The notes: generated from the sequence alone by a model not told the origin. 64,000 bases of DNA from Candidatus Hodarchaeota archaeon (GCA_048886525.1 JBHLKP010000001.1:16751-80750), one strand, 5' to 3'; shown: positions 41,944-64,000, numbered from the stretch's first letter. Numbers and translations are program-made.

Positions 41944-41973
41944 TCTTACGAGAATCTTTCAGTTTTCTCTTGT

Positions 41974-43416: not shown

Positions 43417-43449
43417 TTTACCTCTAAAGATAAATAAGAGTTATCTACA

Positions 43450-49885: not shown

Positions 49886-49916
49886 ATATATTCACCTTGG
49901 ATAAAAGGTTTTGGAG

Positions 49917-51359
49917 TTATTCTTCCTCTTCTAACAAGAAATCGATGAAATTATCGTAAGTTGACTGGACTCCAGCACAGGATATCTTGTCATCCCCTCC
50001 CTGTTTTTCGCTATAGCGTTGAATCTGTCTTTCAATCCAAGCTCCTTTCCAACCACAGCCACAATCATCCCAATGTATCGTGACTTCATCACCAGTAATG
50101 AAACCACCCCAATAAGTTTCAGCTAAGAGGTCATAGAAAGCAAATCGTCCAGTTTGTACTCCTTTTCTTTGTAATGGTTCACCTGTTTCCGGATCTAGAA
50201 TAAAGGGAATAAACCACGGAAAAATGTGGTAATTGCTTTTAGAGCACGATGGTATACCTGCGCCGTTCATTTCTGTCATACCATAGTTATCTTTAATAGA
50301 ATTGACTCCATAGAAGTCACAAACGATATCATACCATCCTTCAGGGGGTTGATAACCTTTCATACCACCACCTGTTGCAATACCACTATTAGGAGCAAAA
50401 ACTTGGCTTAAACCCATTTCATGACCTTTAAGTGCAGTTTCGATAATCGGCTGCCAAACTCCCATGAAAAATACTCTTTTTCCTGCATATTTTGTGAGAA
50501 GTTTATTGATGAATGCTTCAAACATTTTGGGCGCAATTGTTTTCATTTTAATAAATTCGCCTTTATTGTGAACAAGAGCACGGACAAGTTGAAGTTTACC
50601 TAACTCTCCTTTCGCTTTAGCAGCTCTCACACGTCCGGCCAAACTCATAAAATCCGCAGACATAAACCCAGGATAAGCTGTATGATATTCTTCATCTGAT
50701 CCAGCCATCTTTGGAGCGAAATGTCCAATAACGCGTTGTGCCAACTGACGTCCATCTCGGTAACCAGGGAAGAAAACTGGGACATGTTCTTCATGAAAAT
50801 TTATCCCTGTGGTACATTCAAGCATCATGTATATACCGTTCTTGTAATTCTCCATGTCAATCATTGTACGGGGCAGAAAGGAGAGTTTTCCTGTGGTACC
50901 TGAACTATGAACGACCATAAGATCTGATTGGTCTTCTAATTGATTAAGCCATTGGTCAATAGTTTTTGGATCTTTTAAAATAATATTAGAAAAATCTAAT
51001 GTCGAAAATTTAGCTAACCATTTAGTAAGTTGATCAAATCGTCGTTTTTCGATTAGAGAAAGGGGATATGACTTGTAAACGGTATGTGTAAATAAAACTG
51101 GTAAAATATCATTTAATGTATCGATATTAATTACACTTTGTCTCTTAACTAAATCTCTCACAGCTGTAATTCTTGAAGCTAATTCACGGAATCTTTCCTG
51201 CAATGCACGTAATTGAACGTTTTCAAGTTCTTTGCCTTCTAACATGAAACAATCATCTGGTGAATGAAGTTCACGTCTAGGCCAGTTTCGGGGATGCATA
51301 TCCCAATCAGAGGCCTTTTTATCTACATCTACTTGGGTTGAGATTGTCATTCTAAACAA
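49917..51359 (-). CDS. LuxE-like acyl-protein synthetase / adenylate-forming enzyme
   Basis: Adenylation motif 'VVHSSGTTGKLSF', 'YGMTE'. Sits immediately upstream of the LuxC-like gene on the same strand (31-nt gap). Confidence 0.65.
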   Translation of the reverse strand: MFRMTISTQVDVDKKASDWDMHPRNWPRRELHSPDDCFMLEGKELENVQLRALQERFRELASRITAVRDLVKRQSVINIDTLNDILPVLFTHTVYKSYPLSLIEKRRFDQLTKWLAKFSTLDFSNIILKDPKTIDQWLNQLEDQSDLMVVHSSGTTGKLSFLPRTMIDMENYKNGIYMMLECTTGINFHEEHVPVFFPGYRDGRQLAQRVIGHFAPKMAGSDEEYHTAYPGFMSADFMSLAGRVRAAKAKGELGKLQLVRALVHNKGEFIKMKTIAPKMFEAFINKLLTKYAGKRVFFMGVWQPIIETALKGHEMGLSQVFAPNSGIATGGGMKGYQPPEGWYDIVCDFYGVNSIKDNYGMTEMNGAGIPSCSKSNYHIFPWFIPFILDPETGEPLQRKGVQTGRFAFYDLLAETYWGGFITGDEVTIHWDDCGCGWKGAWIERQIQRYSEKQGGDDKISCAGVQSTYDNFIDFLLEEEE

Positions 51360-51519
51360 CGTCCGAAAATAATATTTTCAGATAAGGATTGCTGGAATAA
51401 TTTATATATTATAAATATTTGGAACGCTTTATATAAGCTTTATAAATAAATAAAAAAAAGGTAGTTTTCCAAGTTTTTGAATATAATAACTATAGTCTCT
51501 AATATTTATTGATTGATTG

Positions 51520-54279
51520 ATGACACTTTCTAATAATGATCCTCATAAGCTGTGGAAGCATTACAACTCTACTCTTGAAGAATTTGTGCTTACAAAAGAT
51601 TTAGAGGAAGCAATATCTGAATTTCGCAAAATTATGGATGCTTCTCCTCCAATAGATCTTTTGACCGAATTAGCGAAGCGTTTTATTCAACTTAAACGAA
51701 TTGATGACGCTAAAAAGGCTTATGGTCTAATACTAACAATAGATAATACCCATCGTGAGACTTGGAAACAGCTTTCCTCTTTATATTTCAAACTCAAAGA
51801 TATCCCAAAAGCAGAGTTTTGTTTGAAAAAATATTATACTTTAGCAGGTGGAAATGCTCAACTTCAAAAAGCTAGTAAGGTTAGGCTTGCTAGTTCAGGA
51901 CGATTGAAAAAATTACCTGAAAATCAAGAATTAGGATTGCAAGATGGTATAACAATCCGATCTACTTCTCCCAGAACTGTAATGAGTCTTTCAGAATTTG
52001 AAAGGCGTTTTGAAATTTCAGTTAAAGATCTTCCACTAGCAGTTCAAAGAATAATTCAATTTTCTCAACATCAAATCGTAGATTATCGCTTTTTTGAGAA
52101 ACAAAGTGGACAAATGGGGACAGTAATTGAATCTTTAAATGAGCAAAATCTAATAGACACTTTAAAAAGCAGAAAAATAACCCATCTTTTTCAATTCCAA
52201 GAACAAGCTCTTAATGCTATTAATGCAGATAAAGACGTTTGTATCGTTGCTCCGACTGGAAATGGTAAAACAGAAGCCTTTCTTCTTCCTACACTTCTTA
52301 AGATAAAAAATTTCAAAGATTGTGGTGTACAACTTCTTCTTATTTATCCTATGAAAGCATTAGCTAAAGATCAATTACGTAAAATAGAGGATTTTGCAGG
52401 GATCCTAGGATTATCAGTTAAAGTCTTTGATGGGGATACTTCGCACTATTGGCGTAATAAAATATTTGCAGATCCCCCTGAAATACTTGTTACTAATCCT
52501 GATATTCTACATTATCATCTTGGAATTGGTCGTAACTCTAGTCGGTTTCAAGATCTTCTCATTGGGTTAAAAATTGTTGTTCTTGATGAAATTCATTCAT
52601 ATTCTGGAACATTTGGCTCTAATATGCATTTTATATTAAGACGACTTGAAAGAGTTGTGAATCAAAAGTTACAATTAATAGGCGCCTCAGCTACGGTAGC
52701 TAATGCAAATTCTTTTGCATCAAAGCTTTTAGATAGACAAATTAAGATTATTGAATGTAAAAATGGTCGTAGAGGTCGTTTACATTTCTTAATGCTTGCT
52801 CCTTTTACTGGAATGTCTACAATAGATGGAATGACTAGTTTAGTTAATAGTATTAAAGGAAAAGGTAAGATACTTGTTTTTCAGGATTCTCATAGAAACG
52901 TTGAATTACTTTACCAAAAATTAGGTGGTGCAGCTCAACATGTGGGTATCCATCGTGCTGGTTTAAACTTAAAAGTTCGTGAACAAGTTGAATCAGATTT
53001 TCGTGAAGGGAAAATCGACCTTTTAGTAGCAACACCGACACTTGAACTTGGAATTGATATTGGAGACTTAAATATTGTTGTGACTCCTCCGATTGCTGTA
53101 AACCGGGCAATGCAGCGTATTGGCCGAGCAGGAAGGAAGGGCCAAGAAGCTCTTGCCGTTATCCTGTTAAATGCAGAAGACCCAATTAGTAATTATTATT
53201 TTCATAATCCCGATAGATACTATCAAGATGTTGAGGATGTATTCGTTGACCCCTCAAATCCGAATGTAATCGAAAATCAGTTATTGTGTGCATCACTTGA
53301 TCAACAAATAGAAATCGCTGAATTTCCTGAGTACAAAGATATTTTAAATCGTTTAATTTCCAACAGTCTTCTTAAACAAGTAGGTCATTCAATTTTATTA
53401 CCGACAGAAGCGGGTAAAGAGCGTGCAAGAAAATATTCAATACGTGGTAAGAACCATGAAATTCAAATTAAGATTCGTGGCGGGTCTATAATCGGGAAAA
53501 GGGCTATGCCCCTAGCAATGTTGGAGTTATATCCTGGCGCCTTCTATTATTCAGGGGGTAGAAGATATCGTGTAGCTAGCTTTTATTTTAGCGGAACACG
53601 AGGTAAAGCCGAACTGATTAAACCAAAGAATGTATGGGGACAAACTTTTCCATTATCTACACTGAAACCAGAAATTTTGACTCTTTACTCCCCATTACAT
53701 TCAGTTTATGGTCTTGAAATAGCATATATTGAAACAAAAGTTCTTCAAAGTGTGTATGGATATTCCCTCCAAACTCCGAATGGGACATCTATACAAAAAT
53801 TACGGGATCCACTCTATTATGCTTCTCGTTCAAAGGGTTTAATATTTAGAACTCCTCCTCTCCCTCCTCATATCATTGATATTGATCGAACTACTTATAT
53901 CGCTTCTCTTCATGCTTTGATTCATGTGATTTTACATGCTAGTCTGCCATTTATCGGTGGTCAGCTTAGTGAAATAGGTGGTCTCGCTTTAATTCCTCAA
54001 GGATACATATTATTATATGATCAAGCCTCAGGGTCAGGAGTTTGTGCAATGCTATTAGAAAATTTACCCAAATTATTCCAACGGGCATATCAGATCTTGG
54101 AAGATTGTGATTGTAAAAATCCTCAGGGTTGTCCGCGTTGTACTTTTCTTCCTCGCTGTAGCCATAATAATACTAGATTAGATAAATATGGGGCACGAAA
54201 AATATTGACTTCTATTATTGAAGGGACATCAGTTCCATTGAAAAATAATTATAACGATTTTAACCAGACTTTTCATTAA
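51520..54279 (+). CDS. COG1205/MrfA(YprA)-like DEAD/DEAH helicase with C-terminal DUF1998 zinc module and N-terminal TPR-like extension
   Basis: Motif I 'APTGNGKTEA', II 'VVLDEIHSY', III 'GASATV', V 'LVATPTLELGIDIG', VI 'QRIGRAGRKG'. C-terminal 'DCDCKNPQGCPRCTFLPRCSHNN'. The first ~110 aa are TPR-like. The track ORF opens TTG-ATG; the ATG at 51520 is used. Confidence 0.85.
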   Translation: MTLSNNDPHKLWKHYNSTLEEFVLTKDLEEAISEFRKIMDASPPIDLLTELAKRFIQLKRIDDAKKAYGLILTIDNTHRETWKQLSSLYFKLKDIPKAEFCLKKYYTLAGGNAQLQKASKVRLASSGRLKKLPENQELGLQDGITIRSTSPRTVMSLSEFERRFEISVKDLPLAVQRIIQFSQHQIVDYRFFEKQSGQMGTVIESLNEQNLIDTLKSRKITHLFQFQEQALNAINADKDVCIVAPTGNGKTEAFLLPTLLKIKNFKDCGVQLLLIYPMKALAKDQLRKIEDFAGILGLSVKVFDGDTSHYWRNKIFADPPEILVTNPDILHYHLGIGRNSSRFQDLLIGLKIVVLDEIHSYSGTFGSNMHFILRRLERVVNQKLQLIGASATVANANSFASKLLDRQIKIIECKNGRRGRLHFLMLAPFTGMSTIDGMTSLVNSIKGKGKILVFQDSHRNVELLYQKLGGAAQHVGIHRAGLNLKVREQVESDFREGKIDLLVATPTLELGIDIGDLNIVVTPPIAVNRAMQRIGRAGRKGQEALAVILLNAEDPISNYYFHNPDRYYQDVEDVFVDPSNPNVIENQLLCASLDQQIEIAEFPEYKDILNRLISNSLLKQVGHSILLPTEAGKERARKYSIRGKNHEIQIKIRGGSIIGKRAMPLAMLELYPGAFYYSGGRRYRVASFYFSGTRGKAELIKPKNVWGQTFPLSTLKPEILTLYSPLHSVYGLEIAYIETKVLQSVYGYSLQTPNGTSIQKLRDPLYYASRSKGLIFRTPPLPPHIIDIDRTTYIASLHALIHVILHASLPFIGGQLSEIGGLALIPQGYILLYDQASGSGVCAMLLENLPKLFQRAYQILEDCDCKNPQGCPRCTFLPRCSHNNTRLDKYGARKILTSIIEGTSVPLKNNYNDFNQTFH

Positions 54280-54352
54280 AATTCGAATATATAAGTCTTG
54301 ATTACTAATAAATCAATGGACACAAAGAAAGATTCTAGGGTGTTTTGAGTTT

Positions 54353-55618
54353 ATGATAACTTCTAGATGTACTTTAACAACTATTATTGGATTTCTTTGT
54401 GGATTTATTATTTATCCAAGTGTTGTATTTTTATTACTTTGTGGAGGAGTTGGTTATTTTGTTGGTCAATTCTTGGATAGCATTGATGTAAAAAATCAAT
54501 TAGATACATTTAATAGCATCCACGCTACTCAAGACATTTTTCATCCAGAGGATATACCTGAAGCAATTATTATTTATTCACGAAAAGAAAATCTTACATC
54601 TGTTCTGATCGACTTCAGAGTGAATAGTAAACCCCAAGACTTTAGACTCTCTGTTCTTAAAAATTTACAGGAATTCGATTTTCGGATTATAGAGGATGCT
54701 AATAAAACCACATTTAACCTAATTCTCGAGTACCCTAACTGTAATTATCCAAAAATTATGACAATGAATGATAAAAAGGAAGAAATTCATTTTGATATAA
54801 AGGAAAGAAGTAAAGATTTTCAATCTGCATTAAAGAAGATAGTTCCTGGATTAGAGATTTTCCCTTCCCTCTATCCTGATCTTTATGGAGATATTAATAT
54901 TAAGGAAATGATTAGCCCTTTGAGCATTGATTATAAATTTCATCCTCCCCCTTCATTTATGAACCCTGAAACTGATTATAGATCAGATTATTTTGGAGTT
55001 AATAGAAATGATAGCAATACCCTAGCAAATGATAATATTCCAATCAATTTTAATCAGAATAACATCTATAAGGAATTAATCGATTACCCTCCTTCCCCCG
55101 ATATGAATAATGGTAGTGAATTTGATGTTACATCAGAAAAAAACAATATAAACCATGATACAATAATAGGTGATTTAATTCCTAAAGGTAATTTGGATAA
55201 TTCATCTATAGAAATTTCCGTTCCAGACCTATCCCCTGATGACATTAAAGAATTAAAAGATATGAACGCTAGAGTACTTAAATCTTTCTTAGAGGATGAA
55301 AATTCAGATGATATTTCCTTGGGCTTAAAAAAAGCAAATCAACTAGAAGAAAACCACAAGAAGCTTCCTGCTAAATTACAAACAAATTCTGATGATATTG
55401 AGGAATCTAAATATATAAAAATTGATTATTCTAATGTCCAAAATTATGATGGAGATATAAGCCCCGTTGATGAATTTAGCACAAATTTCGTTGATAAGAT
55501 CGAAAAAGAAATATTCAAAATGAAGAAAAAAAAGATTGATCCAGAAATTTACGAAGAACCAAATACATTAAGAGAAGTTCTAAAGGATAGAAAACCATTA
55601 GACAATTCTGTGAGTTAG
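54353..55618 (+). CDS. membrane-anchored protein with acidic/Asn-rich low-complexity tail
   Basis: N-terminal hydrophobic hairpin 'LTTIIGFLCGFIIYPSVVFLLLCGGVGYFVGQF', then about 370 aa without recognisable motifs. Confidence 0.5.
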   Translation: MITSRCTLTTIIGFLCGFIIYPSVVFLLLCGGVGYFVGQFLDSIDVKNQLDTFNSIHATQDIFHPEDIPEAIIIYSRKENLTSVLIDFRVNSKPQDFRLSVLKNLQEFDFRIIEDANKTTFNLILEYPNCNYPKIMTMNDKKEEIHFDIKERSKDFQSALKKIVPGLEIFPSLYPDLYGDINIKEMISPLSIDYKFHPPPSFMNPETDYRSDYFGVNRNDSNTLANDNIPINFNQNNIYKELIDYPPSPDMNNGSEFDVTSEKNNINHDTIIGDLIPKGNLDNSSIEISVPDLSPDDIKELKDMNARVLKSFLEDENSDDISLGLKKANQLEENHKKLPAKLQTNSDDIEESKYIKIDYSNVQNYDGDISPVDEFSTNFVDKIEKEIFKMKKKKIDPEIYEEPNTLREVLKDRKPLDNSVS

Positions 55619-55624
55619 TCTATT

Positions 55625-56158
55625 CTACAAAGTTAATTTTTCTACTTGCAACATATCACAATATAAGCATTTTAGTTTTTCTTCAATAAAAAATAAAAAT
55701 TTAGTACAATATGGACATCTGATTGTAATCTGACTGATATTATTACTTAATTTTCTTAATTCGTTTTCTTCGTCCATCTTAGGCGAAATTAAAAGCATCA
55801 GACTTTGTTTTTCCTTAATATTAAGAGGAGCTCGTGCTATGTGCAAAATAGCCTGTTTCTTCTCTCCAAGTTGTCGTAAGCATTCAATTATCATCCTATT
55901 GATCATTAGATCATTTGTTGGCAAGTAATTTTGTAGATAAGCAATAGTTTTCGAGTACTCTTTTCTCTGAAAATAAATCAAAGCTAGCTTCTGTTTTACC
56001 TGACTTCTATGACTGGGTGAACTACGAAAGAGGTATTTTAGATTAGCTAATGCTTCATCCCAATTCCCGTTACTAATTTTTTCATCAATTTTATTGAACA
56101 TTTCTGCTTTTTTCTTCTCTGTTTCAGTACAAACACGGAATTTTTTATTTTGTGGCAT
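55625..56158 (-). CDS. TPR-like protein with C-terminal zinc ribbon
   Basis: 'WDEALANLKYLF...KLALIYFQRKEYSKTIAYLQ' is TPR-like. C-terminus 'RCPYCTKFLFFIEEKLKCLYCD' is CxxC-x12-CxxC. Lies 4 nt downstream of the 56163-56723 gene. Confidence 0.5.
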   Translation of the reverse strand: MPQNKKFRVCTETEKKKAEMFNKIDEKISNGNWDEALANLKYLFRSSPSHRSQVKQKLALIYFQRKEYSKTIAYLQNYLPTNDLMINRMIIECLRQLGEKKQAILHIARAPLNIKEKQSLMLLISPKMDEENELRKLSNNISQITIRCPYCTKFLFFIEEKLKCLYCDMLQVEKLTL

Positions 56159-56162
56159 ACTA

Positions 56163-56723
56163 TTATTTCTCCATTTTGGAATGGTGATTTTTAGACCTTT
56201 CCCAAAGTGGAAGAGTTGGAAATCTAATTCGATATCTTTTATTCATAACTCGAAGTACTTCTTTACGAACTTCTGGACTTAATTTTTGGCGTTTAGCACG
56301 TAATCTAATCCTTAAAGCTCCCTGATTTGACATCGTAATTATACCTATTCCTTGCGTCTCAGCCCAAGATAGCTGTTGGTGTTTCGTCACAGAGTCGAGA
56401 TAATCAAATTGCTCGTTAGGACATAATAAGTAACAAAAATCACAAAATTCCTGATATATAGTCGGATGTTGAGCGTGAAGTTGGATCTCAGCTTCGAAGA
56501 AATAAATAGAGCTATCTATCTGATTTATGGCTGCTAAATCAATTCTAATTTGCTCCTGTTTTGTTGGGGTCAATTTTCGGATATCTAAATATTTTGATGT
56601 GATCTGCAATTCAGTGTATGTTTGAAATTTGAGTTTTTCCACAAGAATATTATCAAGATGAATGATTAATTCGGACTCTGTTGTAACTTCTTTAAACCAC
56701 TTATTTTTTGTCTGTTCATGCAT
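56163..56723 (-). CDS. MmcB-like PD-(D/E)xK-fold protein (tentative)
   Basis: 'RIDLAAIN...IYFFEAEIQL...YQEFCDFCYLLCP...GIGIITM' is colinear with the remembered MmcB pattern D..A...vEiK.s..Df...Y...cD.fy..vP...GlGli. Q occupies the Lys position. Confidence 0.4.
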   Translation of the reverse strand: MHEQTKNKWFKEVTTESELIIHLDNILVEKLKFQTYTELQITSKYLDIRKLTPTKQEQIRIDLAAINQIDSSIYFFEAEIQLHAQHPTIYQEFCDFCYLLCPNEQFDYLDSVTKHQQLSWAETQGIGIITMSNQGALRIRLRAKRQKLSPEVRKEVLRVMNKRYRIRFPTLPLWERSKNHHSKMEK

Positions 56724-57096
56724 TTTTCTTGTCCTTTACCCAAAAAAACTAGTCCTGAATTCTTTGAGGGTAAAAACCTCATTATATTATTATATCAATC
56801 ACTTATATATTAGAAAAGCAGTTTAGGGTATAAAACTAGTTAAGCCTCTACTCTGTCGAAAAGTAAATTCACTAAAGAAAAAGGATTTTCAGTAAATCCA
56901 AGCTGAATACGGTTCTTATTTTTCTGTATTCTTTATTATTATAATTAATTGAAGATATATTAAAAAAAATCATTCACTGATTAAAGAGACCAAGTTTTCA
57001 CAAAATATTTCTAGAGAGAATCCAAGATTTTCGAATTTTTAAAGCTCCTAGACAATTCTAGATAGATATAGATTTTCATGTTATTGGTGAGCTTTG

Positions 57097-57408
57097 ATGG
57101 TTAGTAAATCAAGCATTCCTGTAGATGATATACCTTTCCTTGATGAATTATTTGTTAATAGTCCTTTATGTCAAATTTGTGAATATGCGAACATGTTTGG
57201 AGGAGTATGCTCCCTCTTACTCAATCGAAGAGTTCCAGATCTCGTTATAAAAAAGGCTAGAATAATGAGCTGTTCCGCGCATCGAAATTGGGTGCTTGAA
57301 CTGGATGATTCTTTGGTTAATCTATGGAATGAGTCAAATGAGGATGACCCAGTATCATTCAAAAATTCTCTTGACCAAAATAAAAAGCATAACTCCTATT
57401 GGGGATAG
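57097..57408 (+). CDS. small Cys/His-containing protein
   Basis: About 103 aa with 'CQICEYANMFGGVC...MSCSAHRNW'. Its 3' end overlaps the Hef-like ORF by 10 nt. Confidence 0.4.
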   Translation: MVSKSSIPVDDIPFLDELFVNSPLCQICEYANMFGGVCSLLLNRRVPDLVIKKARIMSCSAHRNWVLELDDSLVNLWNESNEDDPVSFKNSLDQNKKHNSYWG

Positions 57409-59315
57409 TTGTTAATTTGAAGACTAAAGAAACCACTCCATATCTTGATAAATTAAATTTCAAACCCTCTTTGAACGAACAACTTCTTTTATCAAAAGTA
57501 CATGACCATAACATTTTGATCGTCTCTTTAAAAAATGAACCATTAATACGAATATTATCCCTAATAATTCTGTTTTACTTGAAGATGAACTCTTCTCCGC
57601 AAGTTTCACCGAAGGTTCTATTATTAATGAAGAGAAACAGTCAACAATCAATCAAATCATTACTAAAAACTTATTTAAACAGTTCAACTACTATACATAA
57701 CAGTTCTATCCTTCCAAATGCTAGACGACAAGATTATAATCGTTTTTCTATTATTCTTTCAACACCAAAAATAGCTAAAAACGATCTAAAAGAGGAATAT
57801 TTCACAAAGGATTTTTTCTCCTTAATAATCATTTTAAATGCAGAAATGGGCTCATCTTCAAGATTATTAAGATTTTTAGTTAATCAATTTACACATAGTC
57901 GAATTATTGGATTTACGCAAATAACTAATCTTGAAAGGCTGGAACAGATATGTAAAAATCTTCATATAAAAGAAGTACACCAGCTGGAAGAAATTCAAAA
58001 GACTCTTGAAAGAAGTAATATACAGTATTATTCAATCCCATTACCAAGAGAGTATTTCTTTGTTCTTGAGTTACTAGATCAACTTCGTCTTCATGAATTA
58101 AATGGATTGCAAAAATTAGGTTATGATGTTTCGCCAAAAAGCACTTCTCGAGAAATTTCTGTTATTCATGAGAGTATAAAAAAAGAAGGAGCTGATAGAA
58201 AGCAACTAGTGGTTACAGGAAATTTACAGCGTATTATAAGACTTCAAAAAATAATTATTTCCCAAGGATTTCACTCTGCTTTACAATACTTCGACTCCTT
58301 GGAGACACGGCAAAAAGTTGAAGAAAATTTTCAAGGAAAACAAGCCATTATCGTTTTTCTAAATGACATAAAGGTACAGAAATTGCGTGAATTTCTCAAA
58401 ATCCAAGAAAATCTTTTCCATCCTAAAACACAAATGATATTAAAAATAATTTCCGAATATAAATCTGGAATTTCAATTGTTACACATAATTATGACAATG
58501 CTCGATTTTTAAAACAATACCTTGAAAAAAATGGTTTTTCTAATATAATACAACTCGAACAACCAATTAGTTCAATGTCGCGACTGAATCTAGAGAAGGC
58601 AATATTACATTTTACACATGGAAAATCGGATATCTGCATAACTAATTCAGTCAATGCATTCATAGCGGGAAATGCTAAAGTTATAATCGTTTATGATGTT
58701 AATGCAGAGATAATTGATACACTAAATGATCTAAGTATTGATATTCCGAAAGTATTCTTACTCGCTAAACAAACAAACGAAGAAACTAGATTTTTTAATT
58801 TAAAAAAGTTAGGAACACGTCGTCAGATTCCAGAGTTGAATCTTAGTATTGTTAATAAAGCTTTAAGGAAGAATAAAGAGCTTAGAAAGAAAGATTCTGG
58901 CACTGGTAATAATATAAATATATTTAATGGTTCAAAAAGCATATTAGCATTTTCTTCGTTGTTATTTGAGTATGGTATTCCCTATACGTTTTCAAAAAAA
59001 AATTATTCAATAATTTTGGATAAGGATATTTTATATCCTGGAATTATTATAAATAAAAAAGCTTGTATATTGTTACTCATTCCAGAGACGATAGAATTCT
59101 TTACTTCAAAACAACTTCTAAAAATCCTTAACGATATACAGGAAAAACACTCTACTATTTACATTGTTATTTCTTACAGAATTATGGATAAAATGAGCTT
59201 CCAGTTTAGATATAATCTCTTTCAAATAACAAATCAAAGTAATTCATATTTATTTTTCCTGATACAAGAGGAAGATCTTAACAAGCTAGTTACTAAAATA
59301 GCTAACCTAGAGTAG
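57399..59315 (+). CDS. Hef/FANCM/XPF-family homologue with degenerate helicase and ERCC4-nuclease motifs (pseudoenzyme candidate)
   Basis: Colinear with the Hef helicase core but catalytic residues are replaced. 'ILIVSLKNEPLIRIL' replaces motif I. 'IILSTPKIAKNDL' matches 'ATPQtieNDL'. 'LIIILNAEMGS' replaces 'DEAH'. Also 'IIGFTQ', 'HPKTQMILKII', 'ICITNSVNAFIAGNAKVIIVYDV'. C-terminal 'NYSIIL..GIIINKKACILLL' sits where ERCC4 has GDY...ERK...D. TTG start, uncertain. Confidence 0.55.
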   Translation: MGIVVNLKTKETTPYLDKLNFKPSLNEQLLLSKVHDHNILIVSLKNEPLIRILSLIILFYLKMNSSPQVSPKVLLLMKRNSQQSIKSLLKTYLNSSTTIHNSSILPNARRQDYNRFSIILSTPKIAKNDLKEEYFTKDFFSLIIILNAEMGSSSRLLRFLVNQFTHSRIIGFTQITNLERLEQICKNLHIKEVHQLEEIQKTLERSNIQYYSIPLPREYFFVLELLDQLRLHELNGLQKLGYDVSPKSTSREISVIHESIKKEGADRKQLVVTGNLQRIIRLQKIIISQGFHSALQYFDSLETRQKVEENFQGKQAIIVFLNDIKVQKLREFLKIQENLFHPKTQMILKIISEYKSGISIVTHNYDNARFLKQYLEKNGFSNIIQLEQPISSMSRLNLEKAILHFTHGKSDICITNSVNAFIAGNAKVIIVYDVNAEIIDTLNDLSIDIPKVFLLAKQTNEETRFFNLKKLGTRRQIPELNLSIVNKALRKNKELRKKDSGTGNNINIFNGSKSILAFSSLLFEYGIPYTFSKKNYSIILDKDILYPGIIINKKACILLLIPETIEFFTSKQLLKILNDIQEKHSTIYIVISYRIMDKMSFQFRYNLFQITNQSNSYLFFLIQEEDLNKLVTKIANLE

Positions 59316-59617
59316 GACCTTCTAAATTTTATCTTATAGCTCTTTAAGGGATAAATAATTTACTACTGTCTGATTTCATTGATTAGATTTCCAGCTTCCA
59401 GACTTTTTCGTATAATTAACTTAATAACTGTGATATCTTCGTTTCTCGAAATAGCTAGGGTTTCTATTGAAGTAAGAATCATTTGCATAATATTCCTCAA
59501 ATCGTGAGAATACTTATCAGTCAGCTGGATAACAATTATGGTAAATTAATTATTTGTTTAATAATAGACTAATATAAATCTCATAGAAACAAATAAATGA
59601 AAAGTAAATAAATAAGT

Positions 59618-61387
59618 TTAATCACTCAGGGAGGGGGTTATATTTAATCTGAAGAGTCGATTCATTTTAGCAAAAAATAGGTCATATGCATTATACAAGG
59701 TTTGAATATCTCGAAATACACGAGTTTTTGGTAAAATACTTCGAAATCTAATAGCCCGATAATCTAAGATAAGACTAGCTGCAAAATCAGATTCTGACCT
59801 AATTCCTCTTCCAATAGCTTGGGAAACATTTCGTGTGACAGGAAGCGTATTACATATATGTTTTGCTATTCTAACACCCCATTTCTGAGCGTAAAGTGAT
59901 TTCAATAAACGGTTGGTAGCATCAGGACGAGGATAAGGAAGTCCAGCTATGATTATTAAAGTTAATAGACTACGATTATTTTTATCAAGAATCTCAATCC
60001 CTTCTGATAATTTACCTCCTAATACTCCGAAAATACATTCATGATTCTTCTTTTTTAAATCGTCGACGAAATAAGGTGAAATTCCTGGATTTTCAATGTA
60101 AATTTGAGGTAATGACATATATGCTAGGATTTTATCTTTAAATTCGTGTGATGTTGCATACACAATTGTATGGAAAGGATTACTTTCATGGAGTCTTTGG
60201 ATAACACTTGCCATAGACTTATATGTTAAGGCAGTTCTTTCGTTATATTTTGAGGTAAATCTGCGATGATAGATGATACCATTCAAACCAAATTGAAAGT
60301 CTGAGGGTATTTGCAATGATGCATAGGATAAGCCATAAAGAGCTTTATAGGAAGATAAAGGTGTAAAAGTTCCTGACATTAAAATTACACGAGAAAAGTC
60401 TCGGTTGATAAATGAGAAAGACTGATGGGGAAATGGATTTAGCTGTAAAAGTCTATTTTCTTCCGAAACCCATATATCACCTCTAGATGTAAGAAAATCT
60501 TTGATCTTCAGCAGATGTGATTTTTCCAAGAGTGATAGTTTTTGATCATGATCTAAAAAGGCATCTAGGCTTGTAGATGATAAATGACGAGGCCTTTCAA
60601 CCCGATTTCTGAATGAAATAATTAGATCTTGCAATTCATCAAATACTTTCAACGGAATAAGAGCTCGAGCTCTATTAAGATCTTCAATGCTAATTTCCGA
60701 TTCAATATTTGCAGTAAAGTTATGCCCTTCGTCAATAATCGCAATTTTTTCAGGAAAAGTGCTTTGGATAAGAAGCTGCGAAAACATTTCTTGCAGATTT
60801 TTACTCCTTAAATAAGTATGAGTAGTCACAACTATGTTTGCATAAGGTATACATCGTTTAATAACATGATAAGGGCAACCAAAATCACTAAATGCTTCTT
60901 TGTAAGTATCTATTGATATAGAACCATTCGTAGCGTTCGAGGTTATTGGAATTTGTTCAACAATTGCAGGAAAGTCTTCTTCAGGAATTGATCTTGTTTG
61001 TTCTAAATATGGACACTTAATCTGTCCACAAACTCCACGAAAAAATTGGATTCGATCGTTTTTAATACAGAGATCTGCTTTTAAAATCAGGGGTACTGCA
61101 GTAAGGTATCCATATTTTTTAGAATTAGCAATTTTATGAATTTCATTTAGAAAAACCCGAAAAACTTGCGCTTTTGTTCTTACAAAAATGTACAATTGAA
61201 AGTTTTTTTCTTTAACCAGAGGTAATGTTGAAATTAGAGCCATAATAGTTTTACCGAATCCAACTGGAGCATGGATCATTACTTTTGGATGTTTTTCTAC
61301 AAATCGAAGAAATTTCGTTTGGTATGTTCGAAGTTCAGGATGAGGAAATAACTGTAATGAGGGTGGAAGATGATTACTATCAATCAT
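59618..61387 (-). CDS. XPD/Rad3-family (DinG-like) Fe-S helicase
   Basis: Motif I 'HAPVGFGKT'. Four-Cys Fe-S insert ('DLCIKN','GVCGQIKCPY','FGCPYH'). Motif II 'IIDEGHNF', 'LMSGTFTP', 'GGKLSEGIE', 'IIAGLPYP', 'QAIGRGIRS'. Confidence 0.85.
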   Translation of the reverse strand: MIDSNHLPPSLQLFPHPELRTYQTKFLRFVEKHPKVMIHAPVGFGKTIMALISTLPLVKEKNFQLYIFVRTKAQVFRVFLNEIHKIANSKKYGYLTAVPLILKADLCIKNDRIQFFRGVCGQIKCPYLEQTRSIPEEDFPAIVEQIPITSNATNGSISIDTYKEAFSDFGCPYHVIKRCIPYANIVVTTHTYLRSKNLQEMFSQLLIQSTFPEKIAIIDEGHNFTANIESEISIEDLNRARALIPLKVFDELQDLIISFRNRVERPRHLSSTSLDAFLDHDQKLSLLEKSHLLKIKDFLTSRGDIWVSEENRLLQLNPFPHQSFSFINRDFSRVILMSGTFTPLSSYKALYGLSYASLQIPSDFQFGLNGIIYHRRFTSKYNERTALTYKSMASVIQRLHESNPFHTIVYATSHEFKDKILAYMSLPQIYIENPGISPYFVDDLKKKNHECIFGVLGGKLSEGIEILDKNNRSLLTLIIIAGLPYPRPDATNRLLKSLYAQKWGVRIAKHICNTLPVTRNVSQAIGRGIRSESDFAASLILDYRAIRFRSILPKTRVFRDIQTLYNAYDLFFAKMNRLFRLNITPSLSD

Positions 61388-63984
61388 TAACTCTCCTCCT
61401 TTCTCCTATCCTTTTCTAGTTCATCAAATAAAGACCTATTGTTCAAATTAAGTTCAAAAAACAAATCTAATATACCAGTATTTGGGTAGACATCCATCTC
61501 TAAATCACAGGACATTTTTTGGAGATGAAAGTAATTATTATCAGGTAAAAAATCATCCAATACGGTTTTTATCGAAGTCGGTTTTATCGAGGAAGCTTGA
61601 AGGGTTCTTTGTATCTCTTCATCAGTTCTTTTATTATGTTCATTCGTAATTTCTAAGTTCAGATTATTACACATCGCGTTTGCTAGTTCGAATAAGTTGT
61701 TAAAATCCTGCCATTCTAGCGATTCTATCATCAATAAATCATAATATTCGGCAACTCGCGCCCATGGAATTGATGTTAGTTTTAAATGCCGTAGATAATT
61801 TAATAATCGGCCAATTAATGTTTTAACTTTGTTATTCGTTTCTAATCGATCTGTTAATGATGAAGATATATCATATAATGATTCTAACCTTTTAAATTCA
61901 TCAAGAGAAACTTCAACTTCTTTTCTACTTAGCGGAGTAGGTAGTGAGGCTAGAAACTTGTACTGTTCATTATAATAGTCTCTTCCTTTCTGATTTATCG
62001 TCCAATATGTAGCACCTTTGTCAGATTGTGTATCCCACAACCCTAAAGGCAAAAATTGATCTAATGATATTTCTCCGTGCTTATTAACCTCTATCAAAGC
62101 AATTGCTTCATCTTTTCCAGCTGGTCGATTGATTAAAAGTTTCAAAATCTTCATTAATAGGTCATATTTATCTGGAGTGAGGCCTAGTGTTTGCGATCCC
62201 CTTTGTTTCATTTCTTTAAGTTCAATGGGTTGGAAATCGATTGAAATATTGGGTGGGTCAATTTTAAAATGAAAACCAACGTTTTGAGGTGCATCTTCTC
62301 GGAATAACAGTCCTTCTCCATCAGATATTCCTAAAAATGGTTGTTTTGAGTAATTATCAGGTAAGAGTTCATGTATAGATCTTACTATCTCCCTGTCCTG
62401 TAAAGAAACCATTTTCAGATAAATATTATTTTTTATTTCCTCAAAAGAATCCATATTCTGAGACAAGGCCTGTAAGCTTTGAGTTCCTAGAATAAGAACA
62501 TTGTTTTGAGAAATTTTATTGCATGCATCCACTAAACTCGATGGAATAACAGCTTTTGATCGTCCATAAGCAGTTTTCCGAGAAAGAAATTCCTCTGAAT
62601 GAGTTAAAATCATACATCCCTCTTCTATTTCAGATAGAAAGTGAAGAAGAAATGCTACAGTAGCTCTTCTAATGAGAGGTGGTTGGGCACCAAACTGAAA
62701 GAAAGTAAGAGTTTTATCACGAGTTAAGGTATTACTATAATGTCCAGCGAAACCCGAATAGTTCACCTCTGGAAATGATCGAAAGTGATCCAAAATCCCT
62801 GCAAGTGAATCTATTGCCATCATATCTGCAAACATCATGTCCGTCTCTGCTTTTTCGACTTGAACATCAGTAATATTCGCTCCTCCGATGTTTAATTTTA
62901 CTTCTTTTAGAGTGAAATTATATATTTCCTCTGCAGTCTTCTTTATTTGTGCCTCAAGAGGTATTGAAAATCTTTGCGATAAGTAATCTGATGTATTAAG
63001 AGAGCTCAAAAGGATTTGGGATATAATATGGGATTTCCATGCAGCTCGAGCTTTTAGATCATTTTTCTGTCCACTTGGAGGAAGTGGAATAGTTACATCA
63101 CATAAATTTAGATGAATATTAGTACCTAAACGAAATATTTGTAAATTTAAATCACCTAATTGTGTTGGATTGTGTTGAAGATACTTTATGACACCATTCA
63201 TCTCATTTCGTGAGTCGATCACGAATATTTGACGATTTGCTCTAGTCTTTGCGAATGATACTGTTAATTTCTGCAATACAGAGATTATGTCTAGGTTATT
63301 ATAACCACAGGTTAACACAGTCCCCCTACTAATTTTTGGTAAACCTACTGGTTGAGAGGAGTCGTCAATTCGAGTACCTATCTTATGGACAACTGGGAGG
63401 TTTTGAACAGGATAATCATAAATAATTCTTGAAGGAACCCTATCTAGTTTGAGAAATGGTTGAATGAGTTTCGAATGAAACCCTTTCAATCCTCTGAAAA
63501 CACTTATTCCTTCTGATATTTTCTCTCCATGTAAATGTGCGTTTAATAATCTTTTACCGGTGATCAATGTGATATTACATCCACTAGCCTCTAAGAGAGT
63601 ATAAGTCATGGATCGACGTTTTAAAAATTCTCTACGTGCTTCACGGAGAACTGAAGGTAGAGTTTTTTCGGATCTAATTCGAAATTTCAAGGAAACTCTA
63701 ACAAGGAGCATTAATCCTGTATATGATTGACCAATTTGATGTTTTTTTGGATTTGTAAGAGGAGCTGGGAAAATTTGTCGGATAATTTGCACACCAGGCT
63801 GACTAGAAGTACGAAAAAGATTGTTTGACGCATCTGTAAAGTCTTTTGAGGGTTGTACACCAAATATCGACACTAGTATTGCTAAAGGTGATGTCAACAG
63901 TTCATCAATATCTCTATTTTGTATCTGAAGTGAAAGTAGTGTTGATTTGTCCTCCAGAAGTCTTGTGGCAAGTTGCGTATTCAA
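61387..63984 (-). CDS. large HerA/FtsK/VirB4-superfamily-like protein with degenerate Walker motifs and C-terminal winged-helix/helical region (tentative)
   Basis: 'RGTVLTCGYNNLDIISVL...RQIFVIDSRNEMNGV' sits where HerA-type ATPases have 'H..ilG.TGSGKS...vlviD..gEy'. 'GCMILTHSEEFLS' is at the Walker B/DEAH position. 'NNVLILGTQSLQALS' resembles 'g.il.tQrpsdl'. Its stop overlaps the XPD-like start (TAATG). Confidence 0.4.
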   Translation of the reverse strand: MNTQLATRLLEDKSTLLSLQIQNRDIDELLTSPLAILVSIFGVQPSKDFTDASNNLFRTSSQPGVQIIRQIFPAPLTNPKKHQIGQSYTGLMLLVRVSLKFRIRSEKTLPSVLREARREFLKRRSMTYTLLEASGCNITLITGKRLLNAHLHGEKISEGISVFRGLKGFHSKLIQPFLKLDRVPSRIIYDYPVQNLPVVHKIGTRIDDSSQPVGLPKISRGTVLTCGYNNLDIISVLQKLTVSFAKTRANRQIFVIDSRNEMNGVIKYLQHNPTQLGDLNLQIFRLGTNIHLNLCDVTIPLPPSGQKNDLKARAAWKSHIISQILLSSLNTSDYLSQRFSIPLEAQIKKTAEEIYNFTLKEVKLNIGGANITDVQVEKAETDMMFADMMAIDSLAGILDHFRSFPEVNYSGFAGHYSNTLTRDKTLTFFQFGAQPPLIRRATVAFLLHFLSEIEEGCMILTHSEEFLSRKTAYGRSKAVIPSSLVDACNKISQNNVLILGTQSLQALSQNMDSFEEIKNNIYLKMVSLQDREIVRSIHELLPDNYSKQPFLGISDGEGLLFREDAPQNVGFHFKIDPPNISIDFQPIELKEMKQRGSQTLGLTPDKYDLLMKILKLLINRPAGKDEAIALIEVNKHGEISLDQFLPLGLWDTQSDKGATYWTINQKGRDYYNEQYKFLASLPTPLSRKEVEVSLDEFKRLESLYDISSSLTDRLETNNKVKTLIGRLLNYLRHLKLTSIPWARVAEYYDLLMIESLEWQDFNNLFELANAMCNNLNLEITNEHNKRTDEEIQRTLQASSIKPTSIKTVLDDFLPDNNYFHLQKMSCDLEMDVYPNTGILDLFFELNLNNRSLFDELEKDRRKEES

Positions 63985-64000
63985 TCCTACTCCTGATAGT

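Follow-up and report, generated by a model that had tools for sequence, protein, structure and literature searches.

Do eight genes that mix active helicases with apparently dead relatives of DNA-processing enzymes belong to a known repair operon, a known defence system, or something else? The question is raised by positions 51517-63984 of the window, a 64,000-nt stretch of DNA from a member of Hodarchaeales (Asgard archaea), in which the original prediction placed eight open reading frames, all with DNA-enzyme or adaptor character, and saw a possible repair or defence system. All eight reading frames are present as described (g1-g8; Table 1), and the character ascribed to them holds for the enzymes and adaptors, with g4 as a putative nuclease, but not for g2, which gives no DNA-related hint. 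The region is reasonably likely to be a vertically inherited, Heimdallarchaeia-specific DNA recombination/repair cluster anchored on radA, rather than a defence island, and to encode a RadA-linked processing machine with dead sensors or scaffolds. The cluster is apparently conserved and undescribed: as had been predicted, it corresponds to no named repair operon or defence system, the partner genes of such systems being absent, and no prior description was found in the searchable literature.

Table 1. Features of the cluster, with positions counted from the first nucleotide of the window.
Feature	Coordinates	Strand	Basis
g1, predicted active MrfA/YprA-type (COG1205) SF2 helicase, 920 aa	51517..54279	+	Pfam, PDB, motifs
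g2, membrane-anchored protein, 421 aa	54353..55618	+	N-terminal hydrophobic segment; without family match
g3, TPR-like adaptor with C-terminal zinc ribbon, 177 aa	55625..56158	-	sub-threshold TPR, invariant Cys
g4, small conserved protein, putative nuclease, 186 aa	56163..56723	-	PD-(D/E)xK-like residue pattern
g4-g3/g5-g6 divergent intergenic region	56724..57093	.	sequence reading
g5, small Cys/His-rich protein, probably zinc-binding, 104 aa	57094..57408	+	invariant Cys/His
g6, Hef/XPF-like protein, predicted catalytically dead, 638 aa	57399..59315	+	NCBIfam, profile, AF2/Foldseek
g7, predicted active archaeal-type XPD (Rad3 family) Fe-S helicase, 589 aa	59618..61387	-	Pfam, PDB, motifs
g8, predicted HerA/VirB4-fold pseudo-ATPase, 865 aa	61387..63984	-	AF2/Foldseek, missing Walker A
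g8 leader, homologous to the radA-g8 spacer of the closest relative	63985..64000	-	match to L004

The stop codon of g8 and the start codon of g7 share 1 nt (TAATG), so that g8 is translationally coupled to g7 as predicted; g3 follows g4 after a gap of 4 nt, g5 overlaps g6 by 10 nt, and translational coupling joins the pseudoenzymes to their small zinc and TPR partners. The divergent spacer between g4 and g5 presumably holds the promoters of both g4-g3 and g5-g6. A candidate TATA-like element, TTTAAAAATTCGAAAA, lies within it at 57028-57043 and recurs in the orthologous spacers of seven related loci (L004, L005, L016, L017, L022, L024 and L026). Upstream of the cluster, next to g1, lie unrelated LuxE/LuxC-like genes.

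Two of the products are predicted helicases with intact catalytic motifs. The g1 protein matches the Pfam domains DEAD (5.5e-34), Helicase_C (3.7e-15) and MZB/DUF1998 (2e-10), the model TIGR03817 (5.5e-80) and, as its top PDB match, Bacillus subtilis YprA/MrfA (6znp, 8.4e-52). Motifs I (APTGNGKT), II (DEIH) and VI (QRIGRAGR) and the MZB cysteines are kept in nine orthologues, and this combination of DEAD, Helicase_C and a four-cysteine MZB zinc module places g1 in the MrfA/YprA family. The extra TPR N-terminus that had been noted is seen as a TPR-like extension of approximately 200 aa with weak Pfam matches at residues 27-110. Helicases of the MrfA type have 3'-5' polarity in B. subtilis, where MrfAB (YprA/YprB) carries out mitomycin-C repair. 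Unlike MrfAB, g1 has the TPR extension and no MrfB-type (DnaQ-like) exonuclease gene beside it; the next gene encodes a membrane protein without an exonuclease domain. This constant partner, g2, adjoins g1 in every g1-bearing locus, including two rearranged ones (L006 and L009), and consists, as originally described, of an N-terminal hydrophobic segment followed by a variable low-complexity tail. Conservation of g2 is confined to the N-terminal ~180 aa, with distant orthologues keeping only residues 1 to about 180-210, and a weak g2-like stretch lies 3' of xpd in L029 (E 2.6e-8). No family match was found for g2 in Pfam, NCBIfam, PADLOC or PHROGs, and these searches of sequence families gave no hint of a DNA function.

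The second helicase, g7, agrees with the prediction of an XPD-like Fe-S helicase, possessing DEAD_2 and Helicase_C_2 domains, motifs I, II and VI and four conserved Fe-S cysteines that mark it as a member of the XPD/Rad3 family. Its best PDB relatives are archaeal XPDs, with Thermoplasma XPD as the top match (3.7e-39), and it scores 122 bits against TIGR00604, under the subfamily cut-off of 247. Characterised XPDs are 5'-3' helicases. By its motifs g7 is a regular member alongside the proteins of Thermoplasma acidophilum and Sulfolobus, but unlike described archaeal XPDs it is genomically coupled to a HerA-fold pseudo-ATPase and to radA, a coupling not found described in the literature searched.

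The g6 protein is predicted to possess a Hef/XPF fold in which both the ATPase and the nuclease are dead. It matches the NCBIfam Hef model with 75 bits (3.6e-21), far under the equivalog cut-off of 610, and a profile of g6 orthologues finds the Pyrococcus furiosus Hef helicase (1wp9, 1.7e-17) over residues 21-380, including the Hef-type helical insertion in the SF2 core. An AF2 model (pLDDT 79.5) aligns in Foldseek with 1wp9 (1.2e-21), human XPF (9qec_A, 8e-21 over 718 columns) and FANCM (4e-19); by fold score g6 is nearest to archaeal Hef, and no special eukaryotic affinity is seen. The GLGKT and DEAH sequences are replaced at the positions aligned to 1wp9, and motifs I (GxGKT), II (DEAH) and VI carry non-catalytic residues in all nine orthologues and all 28 aligned members. 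In the model, the C-terminal domain has the topology b-a-b-b-b-a-a-b-a-b-a, which together with the ~700-column XPF alignments suggests that it probably adopts an ERCC4-like fold; no Pfam ERCC4 match was found, a C-terminal sequence profile finds no XPF-family chain, and the domain is absent from one subclade. At the GDxnERKx3D positions g6 reads PG(F/I)I...L(I/V)P(E/D)T, and most members retain no more of the motif than its last acidic position (D or E). The predicted substitution of the catalytic residues is seen in both motif sets.

In its SF2 core, helical insertion between the RecA lobes and ERCC4-like domain, g6 resembles archaeal Hef, XPF and FANCM, and the helicase-like domain of human XPF is itself inactive. 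Unlike Hef and XPF, g6 would have lost the two activities together, as judged from motifs I, II and VI and from GDxnERKx3D. It also lacks (HhH)2: there is no HHH Pfam match and the protein stops right after the nuclease-like domain, whereas a canonical Hef encoded in L030 carries (HhH)2. The partner of g6 is, moreover, the small zinc protein g5 and not an ERCC1-like subunit. As predicted, g5 is a small Cys-rich protein; C26, C29, C39, C60 and H63 are invariant in nine orthologues, and it is probably zinc-binding, with no family match in Pfam, NCBIfam, PADLOC or PHROGs. Wherever g6 occurs, g5 directly precedes it.

A second pseudoenzyme is g8, predicted to be a HerA-fold ATPase homologue without a P-loop. 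Its AF2 model (pLDDT 76.7) starts with a beta-barrel at the N-terminus, continues into a RecA-like core that lacks Walker A, and ends in a helical extension of ~260 aa. Foldseek matches it with probability 1.0 throughout to HerA (4d2i, 1.8e-8), VirB4 (2e-8), HerA-NurA and HerA defence complexes; the barrel and RecA-like core are those of HerA, although global TM-scores are low (TMt 0.32-0.47). The degenerate Walker motifs of the original prediction are evident, as GK[ST] is absent in 35 homologues and in the distant proteins of L027, L029 and L030. Where the P-loop would be, these proteins have G-x-V-L-x-C-G-(S/Y)-x-N, a sequence lacking lysine; the strand presumed to correspond to Walker B is VVLTH, with T-H at the catalytic pair; and after the first helix comes a strand of the HerA-like pattern 'hhIDxxxE'. 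No match to g8 was found in Pfam (HerA, DUF87), NCBIfam, PADLOC or PHROGs, or in the PDB by profile. Both the Hef-like and the HerA-like assignments were borne out by profile and structure searches. HerA-NurA is an end-resection motor, and HerA is the platform of the SIR2-HerA (Nezha) and DUF4297-HerA defence systems. Although g8 shares the barrel and core with HerA and VirB4, its family differs from HerA in the missing Walker A, the T-H pair, the extra C-terminal helices and its partner genes, which are xpd, radA and g4; no NurA, SIR2 or DUF4297 gene occurs in the cluster at any locus examined.

The g4 product had been labelled MmcB-like, but this label found no support in sequence: no Pfam match, to PF06319 or any other family, was found for g4 or nine orthologues (E<=1), nor for two distant homologues, and g4 has no match in NCBIfam or PDB, the latter searched with two profiles. 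Residues E38, R60-I-D62-L-A-A, D70, E77-A-E79, H86-P87, D95, Q117 and R153 are invariant, distant homologues included. Among these, E38...D62...E77-x-E79 resembles a suitably spaced PD-(D/E)xK pattern in which glutamate takes the place of the lysine, as it does in BamHI, and g4 is therefore considered a putative PD-(D/E)xK nuclease. The TPR/zinc-ribbon protein predicted 4 nt after it, g3, shows weak, below-threshold Pfam TPR matches and a CxxC...CxxC (C148, C151, C164, C167) invariant in eight orthologues, and follows g4 in eleven other loci (L004, L005, L016, L017, L023-L026, L031, L032 and L036).

The gene order in Hodarchaeales is radA-g8-xpd, then g6-g5 divergent from g4-g3, then g2-g1. 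The radA gene itself is outside the window; the window end, ACTATCAGGAGTAGGATTGA, has its counterpart in the L004 spacer, 28 nt past the stop codon of RadA, and this homology of the g8 leader to the radA-g8 spacer suggests that radA lies just past the window end. RadA is encoded directly upstream of g8 in L004, L005, L016-L019, L022-L024, L027 and L029, and among the features of the cluster it is the adjacency RadA-(g8)-xpd that is conserved most widely. The full set recurs in the same order in L004, L005/L007, L016, L017, L023, L024, L031 and L036; L022 has it too, except that no g3 was detected there. Elsewhere the genes are rearranged or reduced: L009 reads radA-xpd-g6-g5-g4 ... g8-g1-g2, L006 retains g8-g1-g2, L026 lacks g8 (radA-xpd ... 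g6-g5/g4-g3, g2-g1), and L025 holds g6-g5/g4-g3 alone. In distant lineages, where g8 identity is only 22-26%, the order is radA-g8-g4-xpd (L027), radA-g8-xpd (L029) and, on an Asgard contig, g4-g8-helicase-canonical Hef-xpd (L030), this Hef possessing DEAD, Helicase_C, ERCC4 and HhH domains; g4 shares one operon with g8 and xpd in both L027 (35% identity) and L030 (36% identity). The two coupled pairs of the original prediction thus recur, g5-g6 in every g6 locus and g8-xpd in Hodarchaeales and the much more distant L027 and L029. The eight genes are nonetheless three or four separable modules and not one obligate operon. Active helicases, pseudoenzymes and zinc/TPR partners recur together with RadA in several gene orders.

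Such linkage could also arise if independent housekeeping DNA-metabolism genes had stayed near one another through slow rearrangement within one order, without forming a common system. Same-order synteny is weak evidence by itself, because the unrelated LuxE/LuxC-like genes beside g1 are syntenic as well in five same-order loci (L016, L017, L022-L024); the modules lie on alternating strands; and g8 is unlinked from the other cluster genes in 8 of 18 representative genomes (one such contig ends 2.3 kb downstream), and is therefore not an obligate operon partner. However, the linkage is re-created in different orders and at low g8 identity, with g4, g8, Hef and xpd in single co-directional operons in L027, L029 and L030; rearrangement leaves g8-g1-g2 directly adjacent; and junctions between genes overlap or almost touch. 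Linkage kept through rearrangement is not explained by plain phylogenetic inertia, and a neighbourhood without a common system is quite unlikely. Selection acts on each gene, with dN/dS values of 0.05-0.32 (g7, 0.05-0.07; g4, 0.10; g1, 0.11; g8, 0.12; g6, 0.18-0.25; g2, 0.27-0.32) indicating purifying selection, and the values of 0.12-0.25 for g6 and g8 mark these as pseudoenzymes and not decaying genes. Inheritance looks vertical, since identities of all cluster genes drop in parallel from locus to locus. Homologues of g4, g6 and g8 were found only in Hodarchaeales, Heimdallarchaeota/Heimdallarchaeia or other Asgard MAGs, and only 55 relatives of g8 were found among 1.84 billion representatives, those with a named source all being Heimdallarchaeota/Asgard.

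An anti-virus or anti-plasmid system of helicases, nuclease and HerA-like platform would draw on parts known from SIR2-HerA (Nezha), DUF4297-HerA, Druantia and DISARM (DUF1998 helicases) and type IV CRISPR DinG. PADLOC models do match g1 (BrxHI, 9.5e-64; also SngC, DruE, DrmA and DpdJ/F) and g7 (typeIV_DinG, 4.8e-54), and HerA subunits from defence complexes are among the structures nearest to g8, but the matches are to generic helicase cores, g2-g6 and g8 have no significant PADLOC match, and g8 lacks the ATPase site used by HerA defence motors. None of the remaining core genes of BREX, DISARM, Druantia, Dpd, type IV CRISPR and Nezha is present in the eight-gene cluster, no viral relatives or PHROG matches were found for its proteins, no flanking repeats or composition shift were found around it, and its genes are order-wide, diverge in parallel and adjoin a recombinase gene. 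Defence is very unlikely given the vertical-looking inheritance and the lack of viral relatives and named-system partners, so that of the original 'repair or defence' it is repair/recombination that is favoured. Within repair, an archaeal module resembling nucleotide excision repair (NER) could be envisaged, in which XPD opens a lesion bubble, g6 positions on the 5' junction, g4 replaces the XPF nuclease and RadA adjacency is incidental. XPD and an XPF/Hef-family protein are components of archaeo-eukaryotic NER, the g6 model aligns full-length to human XPF of NER complexes, and canonical Hef adjoins xpd in L030. This reading is also unlikely, as the cluster lacks XPB/Bax1, XPG/Fen1-like and lesion-recognition genes and the g6 nuclease motif is lost, and the wide conservation of RadA-(g8)-xpd indicates recombination rather than excision. 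A DNA-uptake or transfer apparatus feeding recombination, as in the crenarchaeal Ced system, which uses a VirB4/HerA-like protein and membrane components, is extremely improbable. The second-best structural match of g8 is VirB4 of the R388 type IV secretion system, g2 is membrane-anchored, g8-g1-g2 are adjacent in L006 and L009, and RadA is linked; against this, g8 has no Walker A and thus no motor activity, multi-pass membrane channel and pilin genes are absent from the cluster, and g2 tracks g1, not g8, in most genomes.

For the favoured RadA-anchored recombination/repair cluster, a DNA substrate and physical interactions among the products are proposed. The products would act together on DNA with branches, for example at replication forks that have stalled or broken, at crosslink-type lesions or at D-loops, and turn it into RadA substrates or regulate such substrates. 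XPD and the MrfA-like helicase would unwind with opposite polarities, g4 would supply incision if it is a PD-(D/E)xK nuclease, and the dead Hef-like and HerA-like proteins would act as DNA-structure sensors or scaffolds. By analogy with non-catalytic XPF-family modules that sense or clamp branched DNA in eukaryotes (FANCM-FAAP24, Zip2-Spo16 and the dead helicase-like domain of XPF), g5-g6 may be an ATP-independent sensor or clamp, and the TPR elements of g3 and the g1 N-terminus may link partner proteins, a role that Zip4/TEX11 and FANCG play for XPF-family proteins. Inactive XPF-family junction binders with TPR partners have precedent, as the nuclease domains of FANCM and Zip2/SHOC1 are inactive, bind branched DNA and act with TPR partners (PMC5859969, PMC5962103). 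The g8 protein would be a HerA-derived, probably ring-forming scaffold that couples XPD to RadA. RecBCD/AddAB offer a functional analogy only: ahead of the recombinase, two active motors of opposite polarity work there with an inactivated subunit of helicase/nuclease fold, RecC or AddB, which serves both to read the DNA and as the scaffold of the complex. The helicase of AddB is dead according to PMC3321194. Compared with RecBCD/AddAB, the Asgard set has unrelated folds (SF2 and HerA versus SF1), and a single complex or an action on DNA ends would be hypothetical for it.

A dedicated Heimdallarchaeia machine for recombination intermediates, in which a HerA-derived pseudo-ATPase physically couples RadA to XPD and a fully inactivated Hef/XPF paralogue with zinc and TPR adaptors senses branched DNA, is a possible but doubtful extension of this reading. 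If true, the machine would parallel the regulation of Rad51 by XPD-family helicases, and would provide an archaeal precedent, analogue or even forerunner of the eukaryotic non-catalytic XPF-family junction binders with TPR scaffolds, with the dead helicase domain of XPF, FANCM-FAAP24 and Zip2-Spo16-Zip4 as its eukaryotic counterparts.

The eight genes of the cluster (g1 to g8) were recovered by ORF listing exactly where the original prediction had placed them, and their junctions are as it had described: the TAA of g8 shares one base with the ATG of g7, g4 and the start of g3 are 4 nt apart, and the last 10 nt of g5 lie within g6. Four transcription units of alternating strand are predicted: g1-g2, g4-g3, g5-g6 and g8-g7. 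The GC content of the cluster (30-36%) is the same as that of the remaining window, in which no tRNA genes or Rfam matches were found, and repeats in the cluster region are at chance level only. In the divergent g4/g5 promoter region, a TATA-like element precedes TTCGAAAA (TTTAAAAATTCGAAAA), and this TATA-like/TTCGAAA element is also present in the orthologous g4/g5 spacers of L004, L005, L016, L017, L022, L024 and L026 (L numbers denote genome or metagenome loci of relatives); several genomes also have similar elements ahead of g1 and radA. A degenerate pattern is not above chance frequency in the window and matches elsewhere in the loci too; the element could be a shared operator or merely a local promoter consensus. 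Elsewhere in the window, a run of glycosyltransferase genes (GT2, DUF2064/CofC-like, GT2_3 and a 470-aa MptB-like mannosyltransferase) and the sulphur-transport gene directly upstream of it appear unrelated to the cluster.

Coordinates of the cluster genes and of features in the window and in relatives' loci
Feature	Locus	Coordinates	Strand
g1, MrfA/YprA-type helicase	window	51517-54279	+
g2, membrane-anchored protein	window	54353-55618	+
g3, TPR/zinc-ribbon protein	window	55625-56158	-
g4, small conserved protein	window	56163-56723	-
g5, small Cys/His-rich protein	window	57094-57408	+
g6, Hef-fold pseudoenzyme	window	57399-59315	+
g7, XPD	window	59618-61387	-
g8, HerA-fold pseudoenzyme	window	61387-63984	-
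TATA-like/TTCGAAA element	window	57028-57043	
LuxC and LuxE-like genes	window	48422-51359	-
Glycosyltransferase run	window	40428-44862	
Sulphur-transport gene	window	39324-40397	
Short g6 orthologue	L016	14324-15754	
Short g6 orthologue	L017	9543-10997	
Short g6 orthologue	L022	14348-15808	
Short g6 orthologue	L024	14354-15772	
NurA gene	L003	22521-22598	
SF2 helicase, 760 aa	L030	8992-11274	
Extra DNA between g2 and g1	L032	3283-9396	
Arf/Ras-family GTPase gene	L001	7102-7686	
Arf/Ras-family GTPase gene	L025	13884-14429	
Arf/Ras-family GTPase gene	L030	2150-2758	

The eight proteins and RadA were mapped by tblastn onto loci that surround g8 homologues in 18 representative genomes and onto loci reached via the individual proteins. 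The window order is kept in the closest relative, L004 (g8 87% identical), in L005/L007 (74%), and in L016, L017, L023 (Hodarchaeum mangrovi), L024, L031 and L036 (44-48%; in L031, g8 is present as a fragment only), and L022 has the same order with g3 undetected. In the same-order loci whose contig reaches that far, radA lies directly upstream of g8, and the final 16 bases of the window correspond to L004's spacer between radA and g8, which would place radA just past position 64000. Upstream of g1, a LuxC acyl-CoA reductase gene (PF05893, 2.7e-50) adjoins that of an adenylating enzyme (480 aa) that has an HSSGTTGK motif and matches PaaK-like proteins weakly, and the two look like a LuxC/LuxE-type fatty-acid reductase pair. 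The LuxE-like gene of this pair is syntenic next to g1 in five same-order loci (L016, L017 and L022-L024), and since the pair is unrelated to the cluster, same-order synteny alone proves little.

The rearranged loci, rather than the same-order ones, carry the real evidence for linkage. L009 reads radA-xpd-g6-g5-g4, then g8-g1-g2, and L006/L008 retain g8-g1-g2; L026 (CP070695.1) reads radA-xpd ... g6-g5/g4-g3, g2-g1, with g8 0.6 Mb away, and L025 (CP070760.1) has g6-g5/g4-g3 alone. The order radA-g8-xpd is found alone in L018 and L019 and also in L029, and L027 has radA-g8-g4-xpd as one operon, its g8-like protein being only 22% identical. L030, from an 'Asgard group' MAG, reads g4-g8-SF2 helicase-canonical Hef-xpd, and the DEAD, Helicase_C, ERCC4 and HhH domains of its Hef are all significant; judged from these arrangements, g6 appears to fill the role held by active Hef in L030. 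Thus the arrangements repeatedly join g4, g8, a Hef-family protein, XPD and RadA, and g5-g6, g4-g3 and g1-g2 are constant pairs. The modules are also separable, given that g8 stands alone in 8 of the 18 representative genomes, one of whose contigs ends 2.3 kb downstream.

The SF2 helicase between the g8-like gene and Hef of L030 combines DEAD and archaeal helicase domain 4 with an unusual motif I (SPRKTGKD, GKD for GKT/S), and may, from this sequence, be another partly degenerate motor of the gene set. In L032, a metagenomic relative, about 6 kb of additional DNA stand between g2 and g1, which are adjacent in all other cases. At three unrelated loci, genes for Arf/Ras-family small GTPases sit no more than a few kb from g8 or the g6-g3 module, a proximity that may be due to chance, as GTPases of this kind are numerous in Asgard genomes.

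Homologues of g8, g6 and g4 with source names all belong to Hodarchaeales, 'Heimdallarchaeota' or Asgard MAGs, with a few under other submitter labels such as Promethearchaeota. When the g8 profile was run exhaustively by HMM against 1.84 billion representatives, only 55 proteins were returned, the named members again being Heimdallarchaeota or Asgard, and a metagenome scan with g4 returned just six close relatives of identical arrangement. No relatives were found in viral contigs.

Hef in Euryarchaeota is a fork-processing helicase-nuclease, and g6 had been predicted to be Hef/XPF-like but substituted in both catalytic centres, an assignment upheld by profile, AlphaFold2 model and residue checks. 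The protein matches the NCBIfam Hef model at 3.6e-21, far under the equivalog cut-off, and a nine-orthologue profile retrieves the P. furiosus Hef helicase 1wp9 (1.7e-17, residues 21-380) in an alignment that takes in the Hef-family helical insertion and sets non-catalytic residues opposite the GLGKT and DEAH of Hef; motif VI is absent too. The best PDB neighbour of the AlphaFold2 model (28 homologues, pLDDT 79.5) is 1wp9 (1.2e-21), and the model also matches FANCM, the RIG-I/MDA5/Dicer helicases and, over about 700-720 aligned columns, human XPF in XPF-ERCC1 complexes (8e-21). As the fold scores lie nearest archaeal Hef, they show no specific eukaryotic ancestry. The C-terminal 125 residues are modelled as beta-alpha-beta-beta-beta-alpha-alpha-beta-alpha-beta-alpha, the order expected of an ERCC4 domain. 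This region has no ERCC4 Pfam match and lacks the GDxnERK residues, and its profile (16 sequences) gave only chance matches in the PDB and no XPF-family chain, so the support for a nuclease-like fold is purely structural, from the predicted model. An HhH2 domain is absent. One Hodarchaeales subclade has g6 proteins of only 472-486 aa without the entire C-terminal nuclease-like domain, which indicates that the domain is dispensable in some lineages. Missing three of the four defining features of Hef, g6 is best called a Hef-fold pseudoenzyme.

The HerA-like protein g8 was recognised through structure search alone: by sequence it has no match in Pfam, NCBIfam, PADLOC, PHROGs or a PDB profile search, and ten distant representatives contain no Pfam domains. 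Its model (35 homologues, pLDDT 76.7) matches S. solfataricus HerA (1.8e-8, probability 1.0) and, also with probability 1.0, the R388 VirB4 ATPase, T. kodakarensis HerA-NurA and the HerA subunits of SIR2-HerA and DUF4297-HerA complexes. At the P-loop position (strand 221-226 / helix 230-246), all 35 homologues possess G-x-V-L-x-C-G-(S/Y)-x-N and none possesses GK[ST], which is likewise absent from three far more distant members. The strand VVLTH is the probable Walker B, placed by position rather than by residue-level structural alignment, and the strand IFVIDxxNE is similar to the second strand that is conserved in HerA/VirB4 proteins. As g8 fails both the catalytic and the sequence criteria for HerA, it is best called a HerA-fold pseudoenzyme. 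In L003 (CP070760.1), where the g8 homologue is solitary, a NurA gene follows approximately 10 kb downstream of it, suggesting that the HerA-fold pseudo-ATPase occurs alongside a canonical HerA-NurA resection system.

The two active helicases are ordinary members of known families. The Pfam domains of g1 are DEAD, Helicase_C and MrfA zinc-binding (MZB/DUF1998), with TPR matches below threshold at residues 27-110; its closest solved structure is B. subtilis YprA/MrfA (6znp, 8.4e-52), and motifs I (APTGNGKT), II (DEIH) and VI (QRIGRAGR) and the MZB cysteines are kept in all orthologues. An archaeal-type XPD with DEAD_2 and Helicase_C_2 domains, g7 has Thermoplasma XPD structures as its top PDB matches (approximately 4e-39) and conserves motifs I, II and VI and the four Fe-S cysteines. 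Characterised XPDs are 5'-3' helicases, and MrfA is a 3'-5' helicase in B. subtilis.

Among the small proteins, g3 has weak TPR matches and an invariant CxxC...CxxC, g5 has invariant C26, C29, C39, C60 and H63, and g2 has a hydrophobic N-terminus, with conservation confined to the first ~180 residues. Assignment of g4 to MmcB or any PD-(D/E)xK family was nonsignificant by sequence (single sequence, nine orthologues and distant homologues) and with two HMM profiles against the PDB; a weak match to a PHROG family of unknown function (0.0021) is uninformative. Conserved residues, distant homologues included, are E38, R-I-D62-L-A-A, E77-A-E79, H86-P87, D95 and R153, whereas the cysteines vary once those homologues enter the alignment. 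This pattern is PD-(D/E)xK-like with glutamate for lysine, making g4 a putative nuclease. Pairwise dN/dS against the two closest relatives is 0.05-0.07 for g7, 0.10 for g4, 0.11 for g1, 0.12 for g8, 0.13-0.25 for g5, 0.18-0.25 for g6 and about 0.3 for g2 and g3; the dead g6 and g8 and their partners are maintained proteins, not decaying genes.

The original prediction had left open repair or defence, and of the two repair/recombination is favoured. A defence system would be consistent with the PADLOC helicase models that match g1 (BrxHI, SngC, DruE and DrmA), with the typeIV_DinG match of g7 (4.8e-54), and with the HerA platforms that defence systems use. However, no further component of a named defence system is present (PADLOC), g8 is without the ATPase site that defence HerAs need, and no viral, mobile-element or CRISPR signal was found. 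The cluster is instead distributed order-wide and apparently vertically, with identities declining in parallel with those of RadA, and its most constant neighbour is radA, leaving defence a quite improbable reading. The typeIV_DinG profile (PDLC01439) covers the XPD gene end to end, and g1 scores as well as 1e-63 against the BrxHI, SngC and DruE models; defence annotation pipelines would probably mislabel genes of the g1 and g7 types in Asgard genomes, and caution is warranted where the typeIV_DinG, BrxHI and DruE profiles fire on Asgard housekeeping helicases.

A functionally linked recombination/repair cluster, in which the dead paralogues are non-catalytic subunits, is the reading that we favour with moderate confidence; any specific mechanistic step is far more tentative. 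The g5-g6 pair might recognise forks, D-loops or junctions independently of ATP, by analogy with inactive eukaryotic XPF-family modules, and g3 and the TPR N-terminus of g1 might bridge partners. XPD and the MrfA-like helicase would open the DNA structure from opposite polarities, g4, if a nuclease, would cut it, and g8, probably as a HerA-like ring, might tie XPD to RadA. In eukaryotes, inactive XPF-family modules bind branched DNA, and TPR proteins recruit or stabilise them, as in Zip2-Spo16 with Zip4/TEX11 and FANCG binding to XPF-ERCC1, and FANCM-FAAP24 has no nuclease activity (PMC5859969, PMC5962103). RecBCD/AddAB likewise combine active motors with an inactivated helicase- or nuclease-fold subunit upstream of a recombinase, a functional analogy only.

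No description of the cluster or of its families was found in the literature searched. We read it as a DNA-repair gene cluster that combines known folds with pseudoenzyme families lacking annotation; its radA-pseudoHerA-xpd core is unusual, and it defines at least three unannotated protein families (g8, g4 and g5), with g2 and g3 as possible further ones. Eukaryotic genome maintenance depends heavily on inactivated XPF-family paralogues and on XPD-family helicases that control Rad51. Current inference, in the account of PMC10307638, places Hodarchaeales closest to eukaryotes among the archaea. The interest of the cluster lies in its occurrence in that lineage and in its parallel to the eukaryotic use of inactivated XPF-family proteins: a conserved radA-linked cluster in which active helicases stand beside Hef/XPF-like and HerA-like proteins that are stably inactivated provides clonable candidates with which to ask what job XPD performs in archaea and whether pseudoenzyme sensing of branched DNA predates eukaryotes.
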